From Candidatus Woesearchaeota archaeon (GTDB lineage Archaea > Nanobdellota > Nanobdellia > Pacearchaeales > GW2011-AR1), in assembly GCA_964603295.1 (NCBI GenBank), contig CAZRUG010000001.1:53210-117209 (forward strand): a DNA stretch of 64,000 nt, written 5' to 3'. Both the position numbers and the translations under genes were made by a program. Position 1 is the stretch's first letter; each line of letters opens with the position of its first letter. Below are positions 2,840 to 38,110 of this stretch, piece by piece. The notes beneath the pieces are model-generated. The model saw only the letters and a list, made by a program, of their open reading frames with translations, was not told where the DNA came from and made no database searches.

Positions 2840-3570
2840 TTCAATGCCTCAATTTCTTTTCCCTCAAGCCTTTTTAATCTTGGTTCTTTATTATCTTTTG
2901 GAACTTCAATATAAGCAAGTTCAAATTTATCAATATTAAAATTCTTTTCCTGAATTTCTTTAAAAATCTCTAAAGCAACTTTAACACCTTGTTTAATTGT
3001 TAAATCTTTTTTAAATTTCTCTCTTAACTTTTCTTTGATTTTATCATCGTTTTCTCCAATTGCATTTGCATAATATGAAAAATAATTTCCAGTAACATCA
3101 CTTACAAAAAGCATTGGTTTTTTACTATTTATTCCAGCAACCATCATTGCAACTCCAAAAGGTCGCGCACCACCATATTGTGTGAATTGCTGTTTCATAT
3201 TTGAAAGCTCTTTAATAATTGTCTCTGGTTCAATTGGAGAATCATAGGTAATTCTATGTTGTTGAGCAATAACTTGAGCTTTTTCAATTAAAACCCGTGT
3301 ATCTGCAGCAATTCCAGCTGAACTTGAAATAATATGATTATCAATTTCATGAACCTTTACAGAAGAAGCTGGAACAATAAGTTTATCTCTGATTCTTTTG
3401 TCAGCAATAATAAAAACACCATCTGAACAAACAATACCAATACTCGCGCTACCTAAACGCACTGTTTTTTCAGCATATTCTACCTGAAGCAAATGACCTT
3501 CTGGCGAAAACATTGTCGCAGTTCTGTCATAGCCCATTGCTTGATGTTGCATATCCATTGGCATATCCAT
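2836..3570 (-). CDS. psmA: Proteasome alpha subunit
   Basis: 244 aa; alpha-subunit N-terminal signature YDRTATMFSPEGHLLQVEYA. Confidence 0.9.
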   Translation of the reverse strand: MDMPMDMQHQAMGYDRTATMFSPEGHLLQVEYAEKTVRLGSASIGIVCSDGVFIIADKRIRDKLIVPASSVKVHEIDNHIISSSAGIAADTRVLIEKAQVIAQQHRITYDSPIEPETIIKELSNMKQQFTQYGGARPFGVAMMVAGINSKKPMLFVSDVTGNYFSYYANAIGENDDKIKEKLREKFKKDLTIKQGVKVALEIFKEIQEKNFNIDKFELAYIEVPKDNKEPRLKRLEGKEIEALK

Positions 3571-3662
3571 GTTATAATCCTGAGAAGTTAATAATATGTA
3601 AAGCTCTTCTCTATTTTCTTTCCAAAATTAAAGTATCAAGAAGTTTATAAATTTTTTGGGCT
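3466..3662. repeat. Copy 1 of ~190-bp direct repeat (psmA 5' coding end plus upstream promoter region)
   Basis: Near-identical to 4112-4297, apart from an 11-bp indel and a few mismatches. Confidence 0.9.
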
Positions 3663-4049
3663 ATCAGAACAAGCACCAGCTGTTTGATCAATTCTTAAAT
3701 CCAATAATCCTTGTCTTGCAGCATCATGTTCTACTAAAAATAAATCTCTTTCGGGAGCTTCTTTTTTGAAAATTCCATATCTTCCACAAACTGATTGAGC
3801 AAAAGAACCCGCACCAACAACTATTGCGGTCAATGTAACTGCTCCCTGAATAATATAAGGGCCCCAACCATTCATTTGATCAGCAGGAATCGAATAACCA
3901 ACTCCATGAGTAATTCCATCAAGACCAATTGCAAGACCTGCTCCTAAAAGCCCCCCAGCAATAATATAAAACTCATCACTTAATTTTCTTTCTTTAGAAT
4001 TAATCCTAGATAAAATATAAGGATTTCCATGAGGATTTTTTAAACTCAT
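3645..4049 (-). CDS. Hypothetical small Gly-rich membrane protein (inserted cargo between the psmA repeat copies)
   Basis: 134-aa ORF; hydrophobic, Gly-rich segments (IIAGGLLGAGLAIGLDGI, TLTAIVVGAGSFA); no recognisable family. Confidence 0.45.
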   Translation of the reverse strand: MSLKNPHGNPYILSRINSKERKLSDEFYIIAGGLLGAGLAIGLDGITHGVGYSIPADQMNGWGPYIIQGAVTLTAIVVGAGSFAQSVCGRYGIFKKEAPERDLFLVEHDAARQGLLDLRIDQTAGACSDSPKNL

Positions 4050-4111: not shown

Positions 4112-4297
4112 TTTTTCAGCATATTCTACCTGAAGCAAATGACCTTCTGGCGAAAACATTGTCGCAGTTCTGTCATAGCCCATTGCTTGATGTTGCATAT
4201 CCATGTTATAATCCTGAGAAGTTAATAATATGTAAATCTCTTTTCTATTTTCTTTCCAAAATTAAAGTATCAAGAAGTTTATAAATTTTTTGGACTA
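4112..4297. repeat. Copy 2 of the psmA 5'-end/promoter direct repeat; holds a truncated psmA N-terminal remnant (MDMQHQAMGYDRTATMFSPEGHLLQVEYAEK) on the minus strand
   Basis: Direct sequence comparison with 3466-3662; the remnant ORF stops shortly after the repeat ends. Confidence 0.9.
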
Positions 4298-4726
4298 TTT
4301 TGTATCATAACCAGAAACATCACAACAGCAATCTTGTGCCCGAATATATGTTCCCAAGGCATTATTATAAGAATTAATTAATTCTGCTCTCTTTAGTTCC
4401 CTTTTCATAGAAGCTTCTGCCCTATCAACCTGCAGGTTTAATCTTTCTTCATTAGGGTGATCTATTTCAAATTTCCTCCCAACACTTCCCATATCAATGA
4501 CTTCTCGAATAAAAAGAGGCTCTTCTTTTATTTTTTCATTTAAATTATTTATTTTGGAAGTATAATCTTCTATTCTTTCTTCAGATTTACCTGCTTCTTC
4601 CCTCTGATTTTGATAATCCATTTCTAATTGAGCACAATCACAATCTCCTGCAACAGCATAATTTGGAAATAAACTTGCCACTGCAATTAATCCTGCACCA
4701 ATAAGACTTGTTAATTTTTTAGCCAT
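4295..4726 (-). CDS. Hypothetical secreted/membrane-anchored Cys-containing coiled-coil protein
   Basis: 143 aa; N-terminal hydrophobic signal-like segment (LTSLIGAGLIAVASLF), CDC and CCC motifs, charged coiled-coil middle. Confidence 0.5.
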   Translation of the reverse strand: MAKKLTSLIGAGLIAVASLFPNYAVAGDCDCAQLEMDYQNQREEAGKSEERIEDYTSKINNLNEKIKEEPLFIREVIDMGSVGRKFEIDHPNEERLNLQVDRAEASMKRELKRAELINSYNNALGTYIRAQDCCCDVSGYDTK

Positions 4727-26560: not shown

Positions 26561-26737
26561 TAGATGTTTTTAATTGTTTTGGGCTTTTTAGAAATATGGA
26601 AATTTATTCAACACCCTATGCAAAGCAACTGTGTTGGCGAGCATAGTGATAGAGCATTGAAAATTTTCACGCACTTTGCAAAGTTTAATTTGCAACCGCA
26701 ACAAAGTGAGGACTATGGGGTTAAAATCTTTGATTTT

Positions 26738-26760
26738 GACGCCCCGACCGAGATTCGAAC
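26738..26760 (-). repeat. 23-nt perfect direct repeat of the tRNA 3' end (T-loop to discriminator plus 2 nt). att-like boundary; the surrounding sequence does not fold as a complete tRNA
   Basis: gacgccccgaccgagattcgaac is identical to 37609-37631. The upstream would-be T-stem 5' strand (GAGGG) does not pair, so this is a fragment, not a gene. Confidence 0.8.
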
Positions 26761-27093
26761 CCTCGTCTTGCGAGCCACAGTCACACGTTCTACAATTAAA
26801 TTACCATCGCCATTATGAGATTTATATTAAGTCTAAAGTTTAAAAGTTTTCTTTAATTTACAGAGATACCCCACAACATTTAAATACTCTTTTGACTTTT
26901 TTAAAAAATGATAGTTAAAACAGATAAAGCTTCCAACTGCATTGATTTCAGTTGCACGAGAATAAATCGTGAAGCTTCTTGTCGGCATAATTCGAAATAA
27001 TAGTATATTCAATTCGAAGAAATATCTTGGTATCTTTAATCAGATAAATTTAAAAAACAATTTAATCTGGCTTAAACGTTTTTGGAGGTTTAA

Positions 27094-27486
27094 ATGAAAT
27101 TAGCATTTGATAAACTAGGGGGCTTAATTCCTGTTGTAACCCAAGATTTCCGGACAAACGAAGTTTTAATGGTCGGTTTTATGAACCAAAATGCGTTTGA
27201 AGAAACTTTAAAAACATTACAAGCAACATATTGGAGTAGAAGTAAAAATCGCCTTTGGAAAAAAGGAGAAACTTCAGGTAATGTCCAGGAAGTAAAACAA
27301 ATATTAATTGATTGCGATAACGACACACTTTTGTTAAAGGTGCACCAAATAGGTGGTGCGGCGTGTCATACTGGTTATAGGTCATGTTTTTATCGAGAAA
27401 TGGATTCAAAACAAAATACAAATATAATCGGTAAAAAACTATTTATGGAGGGTGAACTTTATGGAGAAAAAAATAAGCAACACTAA
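27094..27486 (+). CDS. hisI: Phosphoribosyl-AMP cyclohydrolase
   Basis: 130 aa; HisI motifs (GLIPVVTQD, WSRSKNRLWKKGETSGN, DCDNDTLLLKV, CHTG). Confidence 0.8.
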   Translation: MKLAFDKLGGLIPVVTQDFRTNEVLMVGFMNQNAFEETLKTLQATYWSRSKNRLWKKGETSGNVQEVKQILIDCDNDTLLLKVHQIGGAACHTGYRSCFYREMDSKQNTNIIGKKLFMEGELYGEKNKQH

Positions 27487-28366
27487 GGAAAATAAAAATA
27501 AAATTGTACTTGGCCTACCAAAAGGGAGCTTGCAAGAAGCAACAGCCAAATTGTTTGAAAAAGCTGGATTTGAGATTTCCATTCCTGAAAGGTCATATTT
27601 TCCTAGCATAAATGATCCAGAAATAGAGTGTATTTTATTAAGAGCGCAAGAGATAGCCGGATATGTAGAGGCTGGTATCCTTGATGCAGGTATAACTGGT
27701 TATGATTGGATTCAGGAAACTAGGGCAGATGTCCATGAAGTTGAAGAATTTATTTATGGTAAAAAAGGCTTTAGTGCAGTAAAGTGGATTTTAGCTGTTG
27801 CAAATGAATCTCCAATAAAATCTGTTCAGGATTTGGAAGGGAAAAGAATAGCTACAGAAACAATGAATCTTACTAAAAATTTCTTAAAAGAAAAAGGAGT
27901 AAACGCTAAGGTAGAATTCTCTTGGGGGGCAACAGAAATAAAAGCTCGTGGACTTGTTGATGCGATCGTTGATGTTACTGAAACAGGATCTTCCTTAAAA
28001 GCAAATAATTTAAGGGTAATTGATACAATCTTAGAGTCAACAACTAGATTAATTGCAAATAATGATTCTATTAAAAACGAGTGGAAAAAAAATAAAATTT
28101 ATGGTCTAGCATTGCTTCTAAAAGGGGTAATGTTAGCAGAGAAGAAGGTCTTAATGATGATGAATGTAAAAAAAGAAGATGTAGAAAATGTGACAAAAGC
28201 TCTTCCAGCACTAAACACGCCAACAATAACACAACTGACTAATCCAGATTGGTTTGATGTTATCACAGTTGTAGATAAATTAACTGCAAGAGACATAACC
28301 CCTAAACTTAAAATGCTTGGTGCAAGGGATATTTTAGAAATTCCTATTAATCGTATTATAATCTAA
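27452..28366 (+). CDS. hisG: ATP phosphoribosyltransferase, long form with C-terminal regulatory domain
   Basis: 304 aa; LGLPKGSL, DAGITGYDW, TGSSLKAN and a HisG_C-like C-terminus. Confidence 0.85.
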   Translation: MNFMEKKISNTKENKNKIVLGLPKGSLQEATAKLFEKAGFEISIPERSYFPSINDPEIECILLRAQEIAGYVEAGILDAGITGYDWIQETRADVHEVEEFIYGKKGFSAVKWILAVANESPIKSVQDLEGKRIATETMNLTKNFLKEKGVNAKVEFSWGATEIKARGLVDAIVDVTETGSSLKANNLRVIDTILESTTRLIANNDSIKNEWKKNKIYGLALLLKGVMLAEKKVLMMMNVKKEDVENVTKALPALNTPTITQLTNPDWFDVITVVDKLTARDITPKLKMLGARDILEIPINRIII

Positions 28367-28979
28367 GCTGACTATACCAATTTTCAATTCTATCTTGATT
28401 AACACAATTATTATAGATTCCAAATTGTGGTTCTTTCTCGGCTAATATAGCGACCCCTGTAGATAATCCAAATAAAATCTCTTCGCCTATAACGTTGTTA
28501 GGAAGATATTGTGCGAATCCATCGGGGGTTAGAGATAAATCTGGAGCTATCTGATGAATCTTTTGGAAGGATGTATCTTTATCATAAATAAATAGAATTT
28601 TATTCTCCAGGTTAGAAACATCTTGGTTTGGATATCTTGAAACTCTTTTTTCTCCCCTTTCAATATCATTTACTCCCAGATATAAATGGGAAATCCCATT
28701 TGGTTTTAAATGATTAACACAGCCAATTCTTGCATCTCCAATTGCCCCCCTAAAAGTTAATAAAGTTAAATCAAGGGCCATTAGAGGATTCATTCCATCT
28801 TGTAGATTCTCTTGAGTTCTTTTACACATATGACCATTAAAACTAATTAAATAATCTCCACATTGTTTGTTCAAGAATCTAATACAAGAATAATTATCTA
28901 CCTCAGGGTCTTGATTTGTGGAATGATCTTCATATCCTTTTTTTGGGAAGACATTTATCTTTTTCTTCCCTGCATTCAC
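28356..28979 (-). CDS. Hypothetical protein
   Basis: 207-aa ORF; no family recognised. Confidence 0.4.
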   Translation of the reverse strand: MNAGKKKINVFPKKGYEDHSTNQDPEVDNYSCIRFLNKQCGDYLISFNGHMCKRTQENLQDGMNPLMALDLTLLTFRGAIGDARIGCVNHLKPNGISHLYLGVNDIERGEKRVSRYPNQDVSNLENKILFIYDKDTSFQKIHQIAPDLSLTPDGFAQYLPNNVIGEEILFGLSTGVAILAEKEPQFGIYNNCVNQDRIENWYSQLRL

Positions 28980-29141
28980 TCTTAGTTCTCGATAGGGGAT
29001 ACTTTTGCTTGCTAAAGTAAAAAATACAAAAGGCTTACCAAGATATTGCCCACCTCCAACAATCCTTGAAGTATATATATCTTATTATCATTATTTTAAG
29101 TCATATATTCTTGGTTTAAATTTAATAAACTTAAAAGTAGA

Positions 29142-30269
29142 TTAATTTAAGTTCATTAAATCAATATACAGCTGGGAGAATTTTTGTAGATTTTCTTTCT
29201 CGACATACTCATCCACTCTATGGCACATGTTCGCGTGTCCAGGACCAAATATAAAAACATCTCCATAATCAGAAAATAGTGCTGCCTCTGTCCACGGGAA
29301 ATGGACATTAAATTTGTCCTTAGAAAAATACTTTTTAGATAGTTCCTGAAGTTCTTTTGCAAATTTAGATTTTATATCTGACATAAAAGTTTTTCCATAG
29401 AAAGTTGCCTGAACTTTAACATTATTGTCAACTTTAGATGCCATTTCCTTAAGCTTTAGAAATTCACTATTAATATCTTCTGAAGGAATTAATCTTCTAG
29501 AGACATGAACTTTACAAAAATCTGGAACTGCGTTTGGGGCCGTTCCTCCAGACATGAAACCTATATTAAAAGAGGGTTTTCCAAATAAATCATCTGCCCC
29601 CACAGATTCTATCTCTCTTTCATATTCAATAAGTTTATTGCAAAAAAGGATTGCTTTATAGATTGCATTGTTTTCAAGATTATTTTTTAAATTAGTTTTC
29701 GAAGAATGCAAGGAGATACCTTCAAATTCAAAGAGTACATCAAGACACCCTTTTTGAGCATAAATAATCTCTTCATCAGTAGGTTCTGCCACAATAACAT
29801 TGGCACCTTTTAACTTGAACTGTTTTACTAATTCCAAACCCCCTGTTAAAGAGCCTTCTTCGTCTGCATCAAATAAAAGATAAATATCATTCTCTGGAAT
29901 GTCTTTAATGTTTAAAGCACCATTGATCATGCACGCTAATCCTGCTTTCATATCACTTGCCCCAAGACCATAAATACAAGAATTATCTTCAGATACTTTA
30001 AGTGGATTTTTAGACCAACCCTTAGCAATTGGAACTGTATCTGTATGGCCAACAAATACCAATGGTTTATTAGAACCTTTTCCTGGAATTTTTACAACAA
30101 GATTGTAAAGAGGTATATTCTCTCCACTTATTGGGTCCACTTTTTCTAAAGGAAATATAGTTGTTTCAAACCGACCAAGACGTAATTTTATATAATCAAT
30201 TATCTCTTTATTTGACTTAGTACACTGCGAGTCAATTTGAATTAAATCTTTTAAAATTTCATTTACCAT
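29142..30269 (-). CDS. M20 family metallopeptidase/deacylase (ArgE/DapE-like)
   Basis: 375 aa; metal-binding motifs GHTDTV, GASDMKAG, DADEEG. Confidence 0.7.
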   Translation of the reverse strand: MVNEILKDLIQIDSQCTKSNKEIIDYIKLRLGRFETTIFPLEKVDPISGENIPLYNLVVKIPGKGSNKPLVFVGHTDTVPIAKGWSKNPLKVSEDNSCIYGLGASDMKAGLACMINGALNIKDIPENDIYLLFDADEEGSLTGGLELVKQFKLKGANVIVAEPTDEEIIYAQKGCLDVLFEFEGISLHSSKTNLKNNLENNAIYKAILFCNKLIEYEREIESVGADDLFGKPSFNIGFMSGGTAPNAVPDFCKVHVSRRLIPSEDINSEFLKLKEMASKVDNNVKVQATFYGKTFMSDIKSKFAKELQELSKKYFSKDKFNVHFPWTEAALFSDYGDVFIFGPGHANMCHRVDEYVEKENLQKFSQLYIDLMNLN

Positions 30270-31066
30270 TTAGAAAGACCATTGTTTAAGACTTTAAAAA
30301 CATAATCCCCATCAAAATCTTTTAGATTCCACATAAACCAATTATTTCCTCTCTCAGGATCAGTAAATAATACTTCTCCATCTTTACCCTTAAAGGTTCT
30401 TCCAAATATTTTATGAACTGCTGGATTAATAGTTCGTAATATAAAATGTTTATAATTATCCCTTGCAGCATCTCTTAATTTTATTGTGGAGAGTATAGAG
30501 CCATTTCCGCCTCTTTGATAATCTTCTACCACTCCAATTTCTGCCGTATAAAAACATTTTTTATGGTTTATCCCTCTTTCTCTTAAGACTTTGTTTGCAA
30601 CAGGAAAATTCACACTCTTTGTTGGTTCACTTGGAAATGGATAGCCCCAGCTAAAGCCAACTGGAAAATCGTTCTCCGTTAAGATATAACCTTTAAAGCC
30701 AGGTAAAGAGACAGCTTCATCCATTAAAGCTACGTGATCCACATAATCTGGGTAAAATGGAATCGGATTTAATTGCTCGCCACATCCAGGACAAGTATCT
30801 AGATTATTCTCTTTACATAAAAATACTAAGCCTCTCGGAACACCTTGTTGATCTCGAGAAACACTTAAATCCGAACACGAATCTTCACAACAAGACCTTT
30901 CGGTATATTGCACCATGCAAAAAGAAGGATTCTCTCTTGAAAGTAATGCTCCAGAACAAATCATATCTTCATGCCAGGGGTGCCCTGAAAAAACCTCTTT
31001 ATATAAATCTTTTAACAAACCAACATTATAAGGTGATATTTTTTCTACAACCTTCTTTTGATTCAT
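30263..31066 (-). CDS. GNAT-like acyltransferase with Cys-rich insert
   Basis: 267 aa; motif-A-like YQRGGNGS; Cys cluster CCEDSCSD...CPGCGEQ. Confidence 0.45.
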   Translation of the reverse strand: MNQKKVVEKISPYNVGLLKDLYKEVFSGHPWHEDMICSGALLSRENPSFCMVQYTERSCCEDSCSDLSVSRDQQGVPRGLVFLCKENNLDTCPGCGEQLNPIPFYPDYVDHVALMDEAVSLPGFKGYILTENDFPVGFSWGYPFPSEPTKSVNFPVANKVLRERGINHKKCFYTAEIGVVEDYQRGGNGSILSTIKLRDAARDNYKHFILRTINPAVHKIFGRTFKGKDGEVLFTDPERGNNWFMWNLKDFDGDYVFKVLNNGLSKW

Positions 31067-31122
31067 ATAAATCTTTAGAAAAATATCATTTATAATTATT
31101 TGGTTTATATAAAATATACTTT

Positions 31123-31998
31123 CTAGTTTATATTTTTAACACCCTCAAATTCACTTAATACTTTTCTTTTTAATTGATCTGCAATTTCTTTGTTTTTAAT
31201 TAAGACCAATTCAATCTCAGTATCTTTCTTTAAGACATTCTTTATAAATGAAGGTATGTCTACTTCTGCTGGAAATGAATGATTTGAATAAAGCTTCTTT
31301 ATATCATCTGCTAATTTCTTTGGGAGTTTAACTTGCATAATTGTATCTCCAAATACACCTATGTCTGTTTCAGATTTCTCGTCTGACAACATAAAGTTCA
31401 CGCCTATTTGTTTATAAAATTTTTCAGACCATTTGTCTAAGGAAAAAGAATTTCTTACAATCATATAATGGTTTACGTTCTTTTCTCTTGCTCTGTCTAA
31501 TTCTGAATATTCTAATTCAGGATAAACTAAAAGCCACCAACAATGTGCTCCATCCCAAATAGTTATGTCTCCTTTCTTCTCAAGGTTTTTATAATAATTA
31601 TCTTTAATTTTTATCCACATCTTATCTAAGTCAAGTAAGTTCTTGAATTTCAGCGTCGTTGAATTACTTTCGATTTTTGTTTCAATAACTCCTTCGTGAA
31701 AGGGTATCAGGCTTTTCCCATTGTAATTTGTTAAAATATATTCAGAAAAATTTTTAATCCTTTCAGCCCATTCAATATTTAGAAGATATTTATTTCCTGT
31801 CTTGGATATAACCCCCTCATCAAAAAGTTCATTTAATGATTTATAAACAGATTGATAAGTGCAATTACAGGAGTATTTATTAATGCATCGGGTATAGGTC
31901 TCTTTAATTGACAAAGGCCATTCAGCAAGGAGAATTTGCACGATTATATCTTTCACTCTCTTTGTTTTGTTTGCCTCTGGAAGACTTATGATAAACAC
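31123..31998 (-). CDS. Hypothetical protein with N-terminal winged-helix-like region
   Basis: 291-aa ORF; no catalytic motifs recognised. Confidence 0.4.
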   Translation of the reverse strand: MFIISLPEANKTKRVKDIIVQILLAEWPLSIKETYTRCINKYSCNCTYQSVYKSLNELFDEGVISKTGNKYLLNIEWAERIKNFSEYILTNYNGKSLIPFHEGVIETKIESNSTTLKFKNLLDLDKMWIKIKDNYYKNLEKKGDITIWDGAHCWWLLVYPELEYSELDRAREKNVNHYMIVRNSFSLDKWSEKFYKQIGVNFMLSDEKSETDIGVFGDTIMQVKLPKKLADDIKKLYSNHSFPAEVDIPSFIKNVLKKDTEIELVLIKNKEIADQLKRKVLSEFEGVKNIN

Positions 31999-32099
31999 AA
32001 AAATATATAATTAAACCAATATATAAACTTTTTGTTAAACTATTTGGTTTACAAACAATCAACCGATATTATATAAGACATATTAAACATTGTTTATGT

Positions 32100-33206
32100 A
32101 TGCAGGAATACAAAGAGGCTATAAAACAATTCTATGATTACTGTAAAAAAGAAAAATATCATAACATTGGCTATCCAGAGAATGCAGATTTTGATTATTC
32201 TGAATTAAAAGATTTTTTAGATTTCTCTTTGAATAATGTTGGAGATCCATTTAAGGATTCTACTTATAAATTAAACTCTCTAAAATTTGAAAAAGAAGTT
32301 CTTGAATTTTTTATGGATTTATTCAAAATAAGTCGCGAAGACGGATGGGGCTATGTCACCACGGGCGGAACTGAGGGTAATCTTTATGGGGTTTATGTTG
32401 CAAGAGAACTCTATCCAGATTCAATACTCTATTATTCTGAGGATGCACATTATAGTGTTGACAAAATAGCGAGAATACTTCGTATGGATAAGATAAAAAT
32501 TAATTCTTTATCTAATGGAGAGATTGATTATAATGATCTAAAAATAAATCTTGAGGAAAACAAAGAGAAGGTACCGATTATATTTGCTAATATTGGTACA
32601 ACAATGAAAGGGGCTATTGATAATCTCGATAAAATAAATCAAGTTCTTGATGAGCTTTCAATAACTAAAAAGTATATTCATTGTGATGCAGCATTAAGTG
32701 GAATGATTCTTCCATTCTTCCCTGAGGAGAATCTTAATTTTGCAAAAGGTTTAGATAGTGTGGCTATAAGTGGCCATAAATTTATTGGCTCTCCAATCCC
32801 ATGCGGAATAGTGATAACAAAGAAAGATTATGTTAATAGGATATCAAAGGAAATTGATTACATAAAAACAATTGATAATACCATAACGGGATCAAGAAAT
32901 GGTTTGACTCCATTAATACTTTGGTCTGCGATAAACAAATTAAAAGAAGATGGATTTTATGAGTTATCTTTTAATTGCATTCAAAAAGCAGATTATTTTT
33001 ATAAAAAATTAAATGACGCGGGAATAAATGCATGGAGAAATAAAAACTCTATAACAATATTCTTTGAGAATCCAAGTCAAGAGCTATGTAAAAAATGGTG
33101 TCTCGCATCAAATGATAAAATCGCACATGTCATTACAACGCCCCATGTATCCTACAAAAGATTAAATACATTAATTGAAGAAATTTGCAATGGAGTGGAA
33201 AAATAA
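32100..33206 (+). CDS. hdc: PLP-dependent histidine decarboxylase (group II decarboxylase, bacterial Hdc type)
   Basis: 368 aa. Long stretches match enterobacterial HDC from memory: NIGYPENADFDYSEL, GWGYVTTGGTEGN, YYSEDAHYSVDKIARIL, NGEIDY, PIIFANIGTT, DAALSGMILPF, GHKFIGSPIPCGIV (PLP-Lys), AWRNKNSIT, AHVITTPH. Confidence 0.85.
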   Translation: MQEYKEAIKQFYDYCKKEKYHNIGYPENADFDYSELKDFLDFSLNNVGDPFKDSTYKLNSLKFEKEVLEFFMDLFKISREDGWGYVTTGGTEGNLYGVYVARELYPDSILYYSEDAHYSVDKIARILRMDKIKINSLSNGEIDYNDLKINLEENKEKVPIIFANIGTTMKGAIDNLDKINQVLDELSITKKYIHCDAALSGMILPFFPEENLNFAKGLDSVAISGHKFIGSPIPCGIVITKKDYVNRISKEIDYIKTIDNTITGSRNGLTPLILWSAINKLKEDGFYELSFNCIQKADYFYKKLNDAGINAWRNKNSITIFFENPSQELCKKWCLASNDKIAHVITTPHVSYKRLNTLIEEICNGVEK

Positions 33207-33207
33207 A

Positions 33208-33759
33208 ATGGATAATCTTCCTCCCTTGAGAGAAGTTTTAAAATCTTTACCTAGAACCCTCAGTGAACTAACTGAATTAGAATCTATTTTAAGACCGCGT
33301 GGATGTTCCACAGAAGGTTTTATGGGGAAAGATGAAAGACTTGTTGAGATTATTGTAAAAGATTATTTTACTCTAAAGAGATTAGGTTTAACCTATAATT
33401 ATATTGCTAACCGACTTGATGAATTGTTTGATATTAATGGGGGCGAGATCGGTGATTTTAAATTTTGTTTTGATATGACTTGTGGAGTTCAATATTGCCC
33501 TTGGCCAGATACAGAAACATGTAAGGAAAGTATTCTCTATGTTATGCCAAGAAATGGAAAACCTCATTTTAAACGCGAAGAATTTTTGAAAAACAAAAGA
33601 GATGGAAAATTAAAAATAATCTCGGGGCTATTGCCCCACCTAATTAGAGATCATTATTTCTTTGAAGGTTTAAAGACAAACTATCGGGTTGATCCAGAAG
33701 AGATGTATTCTCTTTTTAATCCCACAAATGAATTAATTATTTGGCCTAAACGCAATTAA
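33208..33759 (+). CDS. Hypothetical Cys-containing protein (start placed at MDNLPPL just after the hdc stop)
   Basis: ORF 33175-33759 overlaps the hdc end; internal start with upstream A-rich region; motif CGVQYCPWPD. Confidence 0.4.
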   Translation: MDNLPPLREVLKSLPRTLSELTELESILRPRGCSTEGFMGKDERLVEIIVKDYFTLKRLGLTYNYIANRLDELFDINGGEIGDFKFCFDMTCGVQYCPWPDTETCKESILYVMPRNGKPHFKREEFLKNKRDGKLKIISGLLPHLIRDHYFFEGLKTNYRVDPEEMYSLFNPTNELIIWPKRN

Positions 33760-34563
33760 TGCTGAGTTGAAAATCCCAAAAGAATGATCTCCTGCAAAAC
33801 CAATTTTTTCTAAAGAAACATCAAAGCCATTCTCTCTTAGAAAGGCTACGCGATCAATATCAATTAGCCTACAATAAAGATTATGTAGCGTATAATAAAG
33901 TGTTTTAGGTTTATTTGCAGACCCAGATAAATACTTAATTTTATCGGAGATTGACAAAAGTTCTCTAGAACGATTCCCTAATTCATTACTCTGAGGATAT
34001 TTTATAAACTCTGGGTTAATTTTTGCATAACAACAAGGAATTAAGAAAAGGCCATTACTTTTTTGCTTAGCTGTTTGAACTATCTTATCCGCTATGCTTC
34101 CACATGTATGCAAACCAATGATAAGATCATAATCATATTCAGTAGATGAATTGAATACATCATCACAAATGAAGGTAAGATTAGGCAATAGATTTTGTTC
34201 TTTACATTTTTTTATCAATGACTTGTTATAATCAACACCAGTTACAATAATTTCTGGATTCTTAGAGGCAATTAATCTTGAAAGAGTTCCATTACCACAA
34301 CCAAATTCTAAGATAGTTTGAGCCTCATTAAATTTACTACTTATCATACAAGCCATGCTTGAATATTGTCTTTCCTTCCTGATTCTTTTAGGAGAATTAA
34401 AGGTTAATGAAGAATCTTGCACCCCCCCTCCGAGATAGAAACTCTCTTCAAGCTCACTTAAAGTTTTCTTAGAATTGGACAGATTTAATAATTCATTATA
34501 CACAAAATCAAAATATTCTAGAGAATAATTAATCATCTCTAAAAAGTGTATTATAAACTGCAC
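33733..34563 (-). CDS. Class I SAM-dependent methyltransferase
   Basis: 276 aa; motif I ILEFGCGNG, motif II/III GVDYN...DLIIGLH. Confidence 0.65.
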   Translation of the reverse strand: MQFIIHFLEMINYSLEYFDFVYNELLNLSNSKKTLSELEESFYLGGGVQDSSLTFNSPKRIRKERQYSSMACMISSKFNEAQTILEFGCGNGTLSRLIASKNPEIIVTGVDYNKSLIKKCKEQNLLPNLTFICDDVFNSSTEYDYDLIIGLHTCGSIADKIVQTAKQKSNGLFLIPCCYAKINPEFIKYPQSNELGNRSRELLSISDKIKYLSGSANKPKTLYYTLHNLYCRLIDIDRVAFLRENGFDVSLEKIGFAGDHSFGIFNSALIAFRPNN

Positions 34564-36073
34564 TAACTGGGACAGACGTTTGAGTTCCTGTAGCTAAATC
34601 CTTAACCATTACAGCTCCTTGAGCAAGTTCATTTTCACCAATAAAACCAACATAAGGAATTCCAGATTTATTTGCGTAGTCTACTGCTTTTTTCGCTGAT
34701 ACCCCCTGAAGATTGATATCTGTTCTAATTCCCTGATCCCTCATATCTTCAGCAATCTTTAGTGTAGAGAGGATGTTTTCCTGACCAATAGGAATAAGGT
34801 ATAATTGTCTTCTAGTGGAAGGTATTTCAGAATTACGTTTAATCAATGAAGCTAATCTCTCCAAACCAAATGAGAATCCAACAGCAGGAATTTTTTCTCC
34901 TTGTCCTCTGTAATCCCCAATCATATCATCAAAACGTCCACCTGCAAGTATAGCCGAAGATAAAATATCTTTATTCTTAAGAAAGACTTCTATTGTTGTC
35001 CCAGTATAATAATCTAACCCTCTCGCTAAGGATGGATTAAAAACAACTGAAGAAAAACCCATTGAGTTGGCATAATCAAATATCTGACTAACCTCCCTGA
35101 GACCTTCAGCACTTATCGGACTTTTAAGAGCTTTTTCAAGAAGAGATACTTTCTGTTGGTTTGAACCTTCTACAGAAACTAAATCTAGTATTTTACTTAC
35201 AGAAGAGTCAGTTAGTAACCTTTCTCCTGAATACCTAAATGTATCTAAGAAAGAAAACACTTCATCCGAGCCAGGCAAGGAATGTAAAGACCTTTTCAAA
35301 TATTCATAACCACTTGATCCAATCTCAGAGACTAATCTCGTTTTCATATCTTCATCCCCAAGGGAAGGAAGACCTTCTTCTTTGATTCCGCCATATAAAT
35401 CAGTTAAAATATTATTTGACAACACTTTTGGTTCGTCGAAGAAAGATAATTCATATAATTGATTCTTAACACCATTAAGACCAATTTTATCCATTTTATC
35501 AAGAGTGGATATTGTCCTTAAGCGAGCATTTAATGGAACCTCTGCAATATCCATAATTCCTTCAAGGACTTTTCTATTATTTATATTAACCTCGATATCT
35601 CCAAGACCTAGTTCACCAAATGCTCTTTGGGCAAGAGCCAATAATTCGGCTTCTGCAGTCATATCAGGTACTCCAACAATATCTGCATCACATTGAGTAA
35701 AAATTCTATATCTTCCCTGACCTGGATTTACTGGACCATCTCTAAAAACCTCTCCAATTGCATATCTCTTAAATGGGATTCTTACTGTATTCTGGAATGT
35801 TGATAAAAATCTAGCTAGGGGAACTGTTTGATCAAATCTCAAAGCGAGCCCGTTATTTCCCCGATCTTGAACTTGATAAACTTCTTTTTGAATCTCTCCC
35901 CCCCCCTTAAATTGAACCGTATTTAACCTCTCAAATAAAGGAGTTTCTAGTCTGTCATAACCATATAATTCAAAAATCTTTGTTAATGTATCACGTACTT
36001 TAGCTCTTGCAATAGCATTCTTACCATGCCAATCACGAACCCCTTTTGCAGGAAAAAACTTTGGTTTAGCCAT
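34529..36073 (-). CDS. hisS: Histidyl-tRNA synthetase (class II aaRS, catalytic)
   Basis: 514 aa; motif 2 RYAIGEVFRDG...GRYRIFTQCDADIVG; HisRS motif AGGRFDDM with the Arg; C-terminal anticodon-binding-like domain. Confidence 0.8.
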   Translation of the reverse strand: MAKPKFFPAKGVRDWHGKNAIARAKVRDTLTKIFELYGYDRLETPLFERLNTVQFKGGGEIQKEVYQVQDRGNNGLALRFDQTVPLARFLSTFQNTVRIPFKRYAIGEVFRDGPVNPGQGRYRIFTQCDADIVGVPDMTAEAELLALAQRAFGELGLGDIEVNINNRKVLEGIMDIAEVPLNARLRTISTLDKMDKIGLNGVKNQLYELSFFDEPKVLSNNILTDLYGGIKEEGLPSLGDEDMKTRLVSEIGSSGYEYLKRSLHSLPGSDEVFSFLDTFRYSGERLLTDSSVSKILDLVSVEGSNQQKVSLLEKALKSPISAEGLREVSQIFDYANSMGFSSVVFNPSLARGLDYYTGTTIEVFLKNKDILSSAILAGGRFDDMIGDYRGQGEKIPAVGFSFGLERLASLIKRNSEIPSTRRQLYLIPIGQENILSTLKIAEDMRDQGIRTDINLQGVSAKKAVDYANKSGIPYVGFIGENELAQGAVMVKDLATGTQTSVPVSAVYNTLFRDD

Positions 36074-36180
36074 ATTTAAAATATGGGCTTTATCTTTAAA
36101 AAGATATGTATAATTGACTAGATAAACGAATTAGTTTAGAAGATAAAAATATTTAAACTAGTATTTATTCTACAATTAAA

Positions 36181-37314
36181 ATGAAAACAGACTTACCAAA
36201 AGGATTCAAAGATTATACTGGAGAACAAGCTGAAAAACGAGAGTTTATTAAAGAGGTTTTAAAGCAGACTTTTGAAAGATACGGATTCCAACCAGCGGAA
36301 ACACCAGTTGTAGAATACGAAGAATTTGTTAGAGGGGAAAACCCAAATGACGAAGCTGTTTCAGACATTTTTAAACTAGAAGACAGAGGAAAAAGAAAAC
36401 TTGCACTTCGTTATGAGCATACATTTTCTTTAAAACGAGTAATGCAAAATAAAAAAATTCCTTACAAAAGATATGCAATAGGTCCTGTTTTTAGAGACGA
36501 ACCTGTAACAGGAAATAGAACACGCCAGTTCACACAATGCGACATTGACATTCTCGGCTCAACACTAAAAGACGACGCTGAAATACTCGCTGTAATAAAC
36601 TCTGTATTAAAAGCACTTCAAATAGAAGCAACAATATTTGTAAATAACAGAAGAATAATGAATGAAATATTTGAGACCCAAGGAATTGTGACTAACAAGG
36701 ATCAGATAATCCGAGAGATTGACAAGCTTGATAAGTTAAGTGAAAAAGAAGTAAAAGAAAATCTAAAGAAGTTTAAAGCAGAGAACATATTAGATATTTT
36801 CAAAAAACCAATCAAGGAATTTGAACAATACGAATCTTTCAAGGAAGTAAAAGAACTCTTAGATTATTGCAAAGCTTATGGAGTTAAAATAGAATTCCAG
36901 CCAACACTTGCAAGAGGTTTATCTTATTACACTGGGACAGTCTTTGAAATCAAAACAAAGCAAATCAGAGAAACAATATTCGGTGGAGGAAGCTACACAT
37001 TTAATGGAGTTCAGGGAGTTGGTTTTGGAGTAAGCTTAGAAAGATTAGGAATTGTAACTAACATCAGGATTGATTTAGAAAAATACTTAATTGTTTCATT
37101 AAATCAAGATAAACAAGCAATAAAAATCGCAAATCAGTTTAGGGAAGCAGGTAAAAATGTATCAATGTATTATGGAAAGCCAAGCAAAGCACTTGAATAT
37201 GCAAATTCATATGGGATCAATAAAGTAATATTTATCGGAGAAGAGGAAGTCAAACTTAAACAATTTAAAGTTAGAATTATGTCCTCTGGAAAAGAAAGCG
37301 TTCTAAGATTTTAA
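36181..37314 (+). CDS. HisRS paralog lacking the catalytic Arg (HisZ-like or other non-canonical HisRS-like protein)
   Basis: 377 aa; motif 2 RYAIGPVFRDE...RTRQFTQCDIDILG conserved, but GGGSYT replaces GGGRYD; C-terminal VIFIGEEE anticodon-binding-like segment. Confidence 0.6.
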   Translation: MKTDLPKGFKDYTGEQAEKREFIKEVLKQTFERYGFQPAETPVVEYEEFVRGENPNDEAVSDIFKLEDRGKRKLALRYEHTFSLKRVMQNKKIPYKRYAIGPVFRDEPVTGNRTRQFTQCDIDILGSTLKDDAEILAVINSVLKALQIEATIFVNNRRIMNEIFETQGIVTNKDQIIREIDKLDKLSEKEVKENLKKFKAENILDIFKKPIKEFEQYESFKEVKELLDYCKAYGVKIEFQPTLARGLSYYTGTVFEIKTKQIRETIFGGGSYTFNGVQGVGFGVSLERLGIVTNIRIDLEKYLIVSLNQDKQAIKIANQFREAGKNVSMYYGKPSKALEYANSYGINKVIFIGEEEVKLKQFKVRIMSSGKESVLRF

Positions 37315-37610
37315 CCGAATCCCTTGAAAAGGAACAATTTCTATCAAGCCCAAATCCCTAAATATTAAAAGAATCTCCCAACATTCTCTTTTCTAAACTC
37401 AGCATTTTCTCTTAAAGTTTCCAAAACATTTTCAAAATCCTTTCTTTCAATCTTTCCTCGAACTTCTACTTCTATTTGTTTTGTCATAAAAAATAAAAGA
37501 AATTTAATGTTAAAAAGTTATCTAAGTCTTGTCGACCACCATTGCGTGAAGTCACAAGTTAATTATTAAGAAATCTTATGAACGCCCTCGAATCCGACAA
37601 AATGTACAGA

Positions 37611-37792
37611 CGCCCCGACCGAGATTCGAACTCGGGTCACCGCCTAACTCCAAAGTGGGTTGCATTGAGATGCATAGACTTTCCCTCTCACCGAGGTTCC
37701 ATCACCCCTCTTTTCCTCCTTCAGGCATAAGAATATGATATTCCCTTAGGATTTTGAGAGGGCGGCATTCTTGGCCTCTGAACTATCGGGGC
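37611..37792 (-). tRNA. Intron-containing tRNA. Tentatively tRNA-Glu(CUC) with a ~109-nt intron at the canonical 37/38 position; no CCA encoded
   Basis: Manual fold: acceptor GCCCCGA/TCGGGGC, D-arm GTTC-AGAGGCCAA-GAAT, anticodon stem CCGCC/GGCGG, loop CTCTCA|A, T-arm CCGAG-TTCGAAT-CTCGG, discriminator G. 73 nt of exon plus 109 nt of intron equals the 182-nt span exactly. Confidence 0.5.
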
Positions 37793-38110
37793 TGTTTGTT
37801 GTGTGAAGAGGTATTGACCTCTCGTCTGTATTCCTCGAAGACAGGCGAGGTAGAACTTTTAGTTCTGCCTGAACTATCGGGGCTGTTTGTTGTGTGAAGA
37901 GGTATTGACCTCTCGTCTGTATTCCTCGAAGACAGGCGAGGTAGAACTTTTAGTTCTGCCTGAACTATCGGGGCTGTTTGTTGTGTGAAGAGGTATTGAC
38001 CTCTTGCACTTAATTTTGAGTGCAAGGTAAATGTTTACTTTTGCCTTGTTTGGATTCCCTGAAGACGAACAAGCTAAAATCTTTTGATTTTTGCTGAACT
38101 ATCGGGCTCA
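37779..38110. repeat. Tandem 91-bp repeat: 2 perfect units (37779-37869, 37870-37960), a 44-bp partial (37961-38004), and a degenerate fourth copy near 38055-38110. Each carries the tRNA 5' 15 nt plus upstream leader with three hairpins
   Basis: Direct reading of the repeat units; each contains tgaactatcggggc, which is the reverse complement of the tRNA 5' end GCCCCGATAGTTCA. Confidence 0.85.

Follow-up and report, generated by a model that had tools for sequence, protein, structure and literature searches.

In bacteria, the cis-mobilizable elements (CIMEs) of the Streptococcus thermophilus ICESt1/3 family are experimentally defined: they are flanked by the attachment (att) sites attL and attR and carry no recombination genes. 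CIMEs are presumed to be mobilisable by the integrase of a related element and arise by deletion, or by accretion at a shared att site. In the DPANN archaea, which have tiny genomes and are thought to need hosts for most metabolites, the gain of genes is little understood. Among archaeal islands, PYG1 of Pyrococcus yayanosii spans ~21.4 kb; a complete tRNA-Gln gene borders it on one side and a partial one on the other, and its direct repeats measure 44 bp (PMC9897764). Archaeal tyrosine recombinases prefer the 3' ends of tRNA genes, where the 5' limits vary, and they favour tRNAs for rare codons; the 2021 review of these enzymes does not mention DPANN lineages, as judged by a term search of its text (PMC8371274). 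The pTN3 integrase causes inversions in Thermococcus through recombination between different tRNA genes (PMC5495485), and integration of SSVK1 into tRNA-Glu occasionally makes a tRNA-Asp gene, according to work cited in the same review (PMC8371274). Here we analysed a 64-kb stretch (hereafter the window, ~29% GC) of a Candidatus Woesearchaeota contig (CAZRUG010000001.1, positions 53,210 to 117,209), in which a 10.9-kb island with a histidine-themed gene module lies between two identical 23-nt copies of the 3' end of a tRNA-Glu gene.

Like PYG1-type archaeal islands, this locus has an intact tRNA gene at one end, a partial 3' copy at the other end and foreign cargo between them, and its target is a rare-codon tRNA, used at the 3' end. 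Unlike them, it belongs to a DPANN host, has no detected integrase, carries a housekeeping and metabolic module instead of plasmid or virus genes, and its partial tRNA copy is fused to a tRNA-His sequence. With CIMEs it shares att-like ends and the lack of recombination genes; here, however, mobilisation in trans is suggested by families of cassettes that occur at two tRNA-Glu genes and in different genomes. The segment between the repeats (26761-37608) is probably a horizontally acquired, integrase-less island that was inserted at the tRNA-Glu att site of this clade, with a chimeric junction that records its capture or its decay.

The initial annotation had recognised the repeat and judged a chance match of 23 nt to be implausible. 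Indeed, GACGCCCCGACCGAGATTCGAAC occurred exactly twice on the plus strand of the whole window, at 26738-26760 (distal, left copy) and at 37609-37631 (proximal, right copy), and no further match was found in the window even with up to 3 mismatches. In 100 dinucleotide shuffles of the window, 0 matches to the 23-mer were obtained, again with up to 3 mismatches allowed. The right copy had been taken for the genuine 3' end of a tRNA, and this was confirmed by two programs. With introns allowed, ARAGORN identified a tRNA-Glu(CTC) gene at c[37611,37792] that is interrupted after position 38 by an intron of 109 nt (minus strand; exon 1 37755-37792, intron 37646-37754, exon 2 37611-37645), and a local Infernal scan scored it at 44.6 bits versus a gathering score of 29. 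Standard ARAGORN and Rfam scans at the gathering threshold missed this gene. Read on the minus strand, both repeat copies correspond to tRNA-Glu positions 53-73 plus 2 trailer bases, and both carry a clade-wide 15-nt core, TCTCGGTCGGGGCGT, which was defined from relatives. The island is bounded by a direct repeat that is identical to part of a tRNA gene, and the intact tRNA lies at one end.

A comparison of the island with its flanks revealed a foreign composition that changes exactly at the two repeats. The GC content at third codon positions (GC3) ranged from 0.21 to 0.25 in all 11 island genes, compared to a mean of 0.164 (sd 0.032) in the 58 other open reading frames (ORFs; Mann-Whitney p = 5.5e-7). 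The step was sharp at both repeats, with GC3 values of 0.099 and 0.156 in the genes directly outside them. Overall GC was 32.3% in the island versus 28.9% elsewhere and exceeded that of every non-overlapping segment of equal size; the tetranucleotide distance peaked on the island as well. Such a shift exactly at the repeats, in a sequence of metagenomic source, could also result from an assembly artefact in which two genomes were joined in one contig through shared tRNA-Glu sequence. We regard this as extremely unlikely. The usual final assembly k-mers are longer than the 23-nt repeat, the artefact would take two coincident chimeric joins, and an independent Logan contig (L081) equals window positions 26715-37639 at 100% identity. 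This contig continues beyond both repeats, for 23 nt in the left flank and for 8 nt in sequence specific to tRNA-Glu, so both junctions have been assembled independently too. Exact-protein look-ups returned contigs from SRR11308339 only, all identical to the window, and no empty-site or strain variants among them.

To place the att site in its clade, we used 78 loci from a scan of one genome per species for a shared 21-mer (loci are cited by L numbers), almost all of them from metagenome-assembled genomes (MAGs) of Pacearchaeota, Woesearchaeota and Nanoarchaeota. Two gene types with an identical 3' half were present: tRNA-Glu(CTC), which usually contains a 45-185-nt intron and adjoins tRNA-Gln and tRNA-Thr, and tRNA-Glu(TTC), which adjoins tRNA-Ile(TAT). 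Downstream of the tRNA, the 78 loci contained 20 exact direct repeats of at least 12 nt, and 17 of these, in 17 loci, were the tRNA 3'-terminal core, repeated 72-3996 nt away. The core copies ended at the discriminator or 1-4 bases past it. As a control, upstream regions of similar total length gave 3 unrelated matches, and the reverse complement gave 1. A tyrosine integrase, matched by PF00589 above the gathering score, begins 22-87 nt beyond tRNA-Glu in L023, L045, L076 and L032. In L010, L029 and L035 a single Fic gene, with no integrase, is bounded by the tRNA and a 10-15-nt repeat, and in one genome both tRNA-Glu genes (L009 and L042) are followed by an identical 45-nt stretch, with a repeat at +129. 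The post-tRNA sequences form families common to several genomes and to both CTC and TTC genes; the Fic and the 129-nt cassette families occur at both gene types, and the histidine island is known at one location only. At these loci the tRNA-Glu 3' end is a recurrent attachment site, for integrase-bearing elements as well as for integrase-less cassettes. This pattern of recurrence is the behaviour expected of element-borne DNA that inserts site-specifically, non-autonomous cassettes included. The features that characterise CIMEs were found here as well: an att-like repeat at either end, no detected recombination genes and, in relatives, cassettes of one family at different att-bearing loci.

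Six genomes (L010, L041, L029, L022, L035 and L059) have a single Fic-domain gene ~60-200 nt beyond a CTC or a TTC gene, and small integrase-less cassettes were seen at tRNA-Glu in L009, L042, L019 and L055; at the two tRNA-Glu genes of L009/L042 the identical stretch spans ~129 nt plus a repeat. The integrase-bearing element of L045 contains a match to the Rfam RT-16 RNA (L045:3217-3396(-), 70.8 bits versus a gathering score of 50) beside a 373-aa ORF; judging by this match, the element may carry a reverse-transcriptase-associated system. In L066 (3316-3387), a Pacearchaeota tRNA-Asp(GTC) has exactly the T arm and the acceptor 3' strand of tRNA-Glu. The att core is therefore not unique to tRNA-Glu genes in every genome.

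No integrase had been reported for the island, and we likewise detected none in the island or in the rest of the window. Among the island ORFs, unknown proteins included, no recombinase was matched in Pfam, NCBIfam or PHROGs. A profile built from the clade's own four tRNA-Glu-linked integrases found no homologue in a six-frame search of the whole window, and the SRR11308339 contigs that extend the window by ~4 kb on the left and 1.7 kb on the right contained no integrase either. Given that none was detected in the window, the proposal of a decayed island or of mobilisation in trans is a fair reading. Like SSV-type elements, the island targets an archaeal tRNA gene; unlike them, it holds no split integrase gene. 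No ORF crosses either repeat, the overlapping ORFs are short and unrelated, and no int(N) or int(C) fragments were present, which led us to reject an SSV-type partitioned integrase. A casposon or transposon was rejected as well, as terminal inverted repeats were absent and none of the ORFs had a Cas1, PolB or transposase domain. Between the island ends, no inverted or direct repeat of at least 9 nt was found.

The left repeat copy had been described as an orphan fragment that cannot form a T stem. It is indeed not functional, and its T stem is mismatched; however, it is not a bare fragment but the tail of a full-length, tRNA-His-like chimera (26740-26811, minus strand). In this chimera a truncated tRNA-His gene is joined at the T loop to the last 21 bases of tRNA-Glu. 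The tRNA-His(GUG) part (26761-26811) comprises an encoded G-1 and positions 1-52, including a well-paired anticodon arm with the anticodon GUG (His). From G53 onward the sequence is the tRNA-Glu tail (positions 53-73), and the layout reads tRNA-His anticodon arm, then GGTTCGAATCTCGGTCGGGGCG. Compared with a consensus from the tRNA-His genes of four relatives (L044, L082, L084 and L085), positions -1 to 52 were identical at 44/52 positions (~85%, counted by eye). Because the 3' end is tRNA-Glu sequence, both the T stem and the acceptor stem are mismatched, at 2 of 5 pairs (G49-G65, A50-G64) and 2 of 7 pairs (G3-G70, A4-G69), respectively. G-1 faces G73, and the D loop lacks G18G19.

The full tRNA length, the encoded G-1, the intact GUG anticodon arm and the adjoining histidine genes could all be expected of a functional, unconventional tRNA-His, perhaps the partner of one of the two histidyl-tRNA synthetase (HisRS) paralogues in the island; the 23-nt identity would then reflect a common design of T arm and acceptor. 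We consider this very improbable, with four broken pairs, G-1 opposite G73 and no G18G19. In a sensitive Infernal search, 26740-26810(-) aligned end to end with the tRNA model at 19.7 bits (E 0.27), against the gathering score of 29, and ARAGORN made no call. The minimum-energy fold is not a cloverleaf and, with z-scores of +0.5 to +0.9, is no stabler than shuffled sequences; neither applies to the genuine tRNA-His of L044. Moreover, a normal tRNA-His is present in relatives that carry both of these HisRS paralogues. A complete, functional second tRNA at 26.7 kb would have reduced the repeat to a pair of related tRNA genes; what lies there is full-length and tRNA-like, but defective.

A split tRNA, of which the left element would be a 3' half in the manner of Nanoarchaeum, was rejected: the body is full-length and tRNA-His-like with broken stems, and no complementary 5' half was seen as a partner for the 26.7-kb element. 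The odd ARAGORN calls among the 78 loci were inspected for further chimeras, and all proved to be normal tRNA-Glu or tRNA-Asp genes or genes truncated by the ends of the loci. As with pTN3 and SSVK1, the chimera points to recombination between non-identical tRNA genes, with a hybrid tRNA gene at the border of an element. In those systems, however, known integrases produce inversions or altered functional tRNAs, whereas here a defective tRNA-His/Glu chimera bounds an apparently captured module.

The cargo begins after a non-coding spacer (26812-27093), which separates the pseudo-tRNA from hisI and holds short ORFs only and no terminal inverted repeat with the other end. It comprises 11 genes, including those of the two HisRS paralogues and of four proteins of unknown function. 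HisI (phosphoribosyl-AMP cyclohydrolase, 27094-27486, plus strand; PF01502, E 1.3e-35) and the long form of HisG (ATP phosphoribosyltransferase, 27452-28366, plus; PF01634 and PF08029) are followed by four genes on the minus strand. These encode a 207-aa module component of unknown function (28356-28979; 49% identical in L084), an M20 family deacylase (29142-30269; ArgE/DapE-like by family match), a 267-aa protein of unknown function with no family match (30263-31066), and a 291-aa protein with a weak N-terminal winged-helix match (31123-31998), a conserved module component that is 47-49% identical in L083-L085. Next are a pyridoxal phosphate-dependent histidine decarboxylase (32100-33206, plus; NF002748, 531 bits versus a cut-off of 305) and an ORF for a 194-aa protein of unknown function (33175-33759, plus). 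An S-adenosylmethionine-dependent methyltransferase (Methyltransf_32; 33733-34563, minus) adjoins HisRS-long (514 aa; 34529-36073, minus; hisS 344 bits), as it does in L083 and L084; HisRS-long has an insertion in its catalytic domain. Last comes HisRS-short (377 aa; 36181-37314, plus), whose orthologue follows a genuine tRNA-His in relatives. No tRNA-His remnant was found between the two HisRS genes (36074-36180). A 12/15 match to the att core at 34421-34435, inside the methyltransferase gene, was judged to be a chance match. To the right, a 40-aa ORF (MTKQIEVEVRGKIERKDF..., 37365-37487, minus) ends ~50 nt from the stop codon of HisRS-short. Judged by eye, its N-terminus is CYTH-like (ExExK-like), and it is probably a truncated gene remnant from a rearrangement at the right end; as a marker of a native gene it showed similarities that were weak and not significant.

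The initial annotation had described the cargo as a histidine gene set. It is histidine-related, yet it is not arbitrary cargo, but rather a conserved DPANN module that is chromosomal and compositionally native elsewhere. HisG homologues at 60-72% identity are common in DPANN MAGs, and in the three module contexts that we examined (L083, L084 and L085) the neighbours are unrelated to one another. The module order there is HisRS-short, HisI, HisG, then methyltransferase, HisRS-long, the 291-aa protein and M20, with extra histidine and transport genes; no hisI gene was called in L083, and the methyltransferase/HisRS-long pair is missing from L085. A genuine tRNA-His lies directly upstream of HisRS-short in L084 and L085. 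Conserved synteny, which would speak against an island, thus applies to the module itself, yet at other loci. L083-L085 have an overall GC of 32-36%, and the GC3 of the module equals that of its flanks. L082, which is as AT-rich as the window, holds tRNA-His and HisRS-short with no HisI or HisG, and its HisRS-short has a host-like GC3 of 0.144; a metagenome scan with HisRS-short returned only this relative, which lacks the module. The match to GC-richer relatives, together with the host-like GC3 in L082, makes the copy in the window look imported from a GC-richer related archaeon, tRNA-His remnant included.

In the relatives, tRNA-His, HisRS-short, HisI and HisG lie on the same strand and overlap in an operon-like manner (L084:8395-10900, L085:8408-10900). 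The neighbourhood in L084 (17745-20900) also encodes a third HisRS-like protein, 463 aa long, as well as one that has a histidine racemase-like domain (CntK_N).

The conservation of the module as a chromosomal cluster in other DPANN genomes, with an apparent housekeeping HisRS and tRNA-His, also suits an explanation without mobility. Here the module would be native, the chimera would have arisen by local illegitimate recombination or gene conversion between a resident tRNA-His and tRNA-Glu, the repeat would be a by-product, and the raised GC3 would reflect gene function or local bias. The necessary genes can occur close together, as L082 and L063 hold tRNA-Glu(TTC), tRNA-Ile, tRNA-His, and HisRS or ACS genes within a few kb. 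However, the GC3 step is sharp and uniform over all 11 genes, HisRS-short is not GC3-rich in the equally AT-rich L082, and the identical core is duplicated around unrelated cargo at 17 other loci. The right flank argues against a native module as well. It begins with tRNA-Glu(CTC), followed by tRNA-Gln, a 106-aa gene, tRNA-Thr and further genes as far as those at 42-46 kb, and it is syntenic in more than 10 relatives, the closest genomes being ~60-70% identical in protein; the histidine module is absent from the 3' side of tRNA-Glu in all of these relatives. Taken with these findings, a native origin of the module is decidedly unlikely.

For the acquired island, the module would have been inserted by recombination at the 3' end of tRNA-Glu(CTC), a site of mobile DNA in Pace-, Woese- and Nanoarchaeota. 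Such an insertion would have restored tRNA-Glu in full and, at the far end, placed a further copy of its last 21 bases together with 2 trailer bases. The island would have relied on an integrase acting in trans, like the Fic and mini-cassettes of the relatives, or would have lost an integrase of its own. The chimera may have formed by either of two routes. In route (a), a tRNA-Glu att site in the donor would have recombined aberrantly with the similar T arm of the module's tRNA-His, with which it shares GTTCGAATC, and so formed a circle; the junction of this circle would read His(1-52)::Glu(53-75), and its integration at the tRNA-Glu of the recipient would yield the layout seen. In route (b), a larger island would have lost its distal part, and the integrase with it, through a deletion at microhomology shared by the T loop of tRNA-His and the distal att copy. 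The repeat would measure 23 nt instead of ~15 nt because the tRNA-His of the module shares the T-loop bases GTTCGAAT(C) with tRNA-Glu. Tentatively, the chimera may be read as a fossil attP: a tRNA-Glu-specific recombination system, widespread in Pace-, Woese- and Nanoarchaeota, would have misused the similar T arm of a chromosomal tRNA-His, excised the whole histidine module as a circle and inserted it in the tRNA-Glu of another archaeon. This is a possibility that we hold to be clearly less likely than the acquisition of the island as such. The reading of the repeats as an attL/attR footprint is supported in part, by the foreign composition at the repeats and by the recurrent att site, while the integration event itself, the donor and the choice between routes (a) and (b) are what we infer from the layout.

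Next to the proximal repeat, the trailer of the window reads TCTGTACATTTTGTC...GGGCGTT, and ~45 nt (37565-37608, minus strand) resemble the stretch that follows tRNA-Glu in L054, a CTC gene, and in L073, a TTC gene. Among 2775 trailer pairs, these likenesses fall in the 97th-99th percentile. In L073 the matching part is the start of a repeat-bounded 4-kb insert, and the ~45 nt are a candidate for a conserved element end.

A clade-like trailer is also accounted for by uptake that involves no integrase at all. Linear DNA of a related archaeon, carrying tRNA-Glu, its trailer, the module and tRNA-His would have entered by homology-facilitated illegitimate recombination, with one end homologous within tRNA-Glu and the other joined through the GTTCGAATC microhomology between the T loops of the incoming tRNA-His and the resident tRNA-Glu. 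The two 23-mers would then be the tRNA-Glu tails of donor and recipient and not att sites. Such uptake explains the absent integrase, the chimera at the shared T loop and the foreign composition, and the tRNA-Glu 3' half, identical across dozens of genomes, offers a homology anchor. On the other hand, it needs a donor with tRNA-Glu directly beside the module, which was not seen in L083-L085, it makes no use of the site-specific behaviour that the core shows in relatives, and the two identical trailer bases would have to be a coincidence. We therefore judge it to be unlikely, though it is the strongest of the competing explanations.

Several observations weigh against an island inserted at an att site. 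An empty site, with the left flank abutting tRNA-Glu, was found in no related genome or contig searched, and the 3' side of tRNA-Glu differs in every syntenic relative. Nor did we find a circular junction, a donor or a cognate integrase, and a scan of IMG/VR for the 20-mer gave no match. If the 45 nt after tRNA-Glu were instead a conserved trailer native to the host, as they could be, the right boundary would not lie at the repeat. Only 2 bases past the tRNA (TC) are common to both repeat copies, and a T after the discriminator is frequent in the clade, at ~3/4 of the listed loci. With so few shared trailer bases and so common a T, the left copy could stem from the other tRNA-Glu gene, that of the TTC isoacceptor; the final trailer C alone separates the two. 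The GC3 shift of 0.065 is modest and could reflect a local or functional bias. Finally, tRNA-His, HisRS-short, HisI and HisG are co-directional in the relatives, whereas in the window the tRNA-His is inverted and HisRS-short lies at the opposite end; given this unlike gene order, extra rearrangements must be assumed.

If acquired as proposed, a complete and conserved histidine module, which includes a histidine decarboxylase and both HisRS genes, appears to have passed from one DPANN lineage to another as a single block. Insertions are concentrated at the tRNA-Glu 3' end throughout the clade, a hot spot both for integrase-bearing elements and for small integrase-less cassettes, and the tRNA-His/Glu chimera would be a rare molecular record of a chromosomal cluster becoming, or ceasing to be, a mobile island. 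If the fossil-attP reading is true, genome-reduced DPANN archaea would have a general means of exchanging metabolic modules and aminoacyl-tRNA synthetases, namely integrase-less cassettes that are mobilised in trans at tRNA-Glu. Elements of this type are well known in bacteria and in other archaea; the present locus extends them to a poorly studied group and overturns nothing.

The tRNA-Glu(CTC) gene has some further features of its own. Its intron measures 109 nt in the window (37646-37754) and 45-185 nt in relatives, with a conserved position and a partly conserved sequence; the whole gene is ~78-79% identical in L023, L005 and L064. Nanoarchaeum equitans splits its tRNA-Glu genes at the same position. 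Directly upstream of the gene lies a perfect 91-bp tandem repeat of 2.5 copies (window 37778-38004), the unit of which combines 30 nt from upstream with the initial 15 nt of the tRNA (GCCCCGATAGTTCAG) and another 46 nt. The tRNA-Glu 5' end occurs a fourth time, in degenerate form, at 38094-38108, and a TTTAAAA box lies ~30 nt upstream of this copy.

Similar duplications of the first 13-15 nt of tRNA-Glu were present upstream of both CTC and TTC genes in at least 12 of the 78 relatives (L012, L013, L017, L019, L027, L033, L041, L042, L062, L064, L075 and L077), at a distance of 45-161 nt in 11 of them and of 990 nt in L012. In these relatives the promoter-like TTTAAAA box stands before the distal copy and not before tRNA-Glu itself. 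Many of these inserts hold a stretch complementary to the distal copy, (A)ACTATCGG. The inserts of the window, of L077:134-244(-) and of L042:7052-7166(-) align and have two common helices with six compensatory pairs. This upstream insert could be a structured 5' leader or a mini-element with a 5'-end att site.

The Logan contigs from SRR11308339 stop at 26643, 26715, 37639 and 37975, which leaves gaps at 26644-26714 and 37640-37974. A second tRNA-Glu gene that shares the 3' half would fit the break at 37639, and one contig breaks inside the 91-bp tandem array. The gap at 26644-26714, just left of the chimera, may reflect strain variation. Far to the left of the island, a direct duplication of ~190 nt with 97-100% identity (families D2 and D4) lies at 3466-3664 and 4112-4298, the copies being 646 nt apart.

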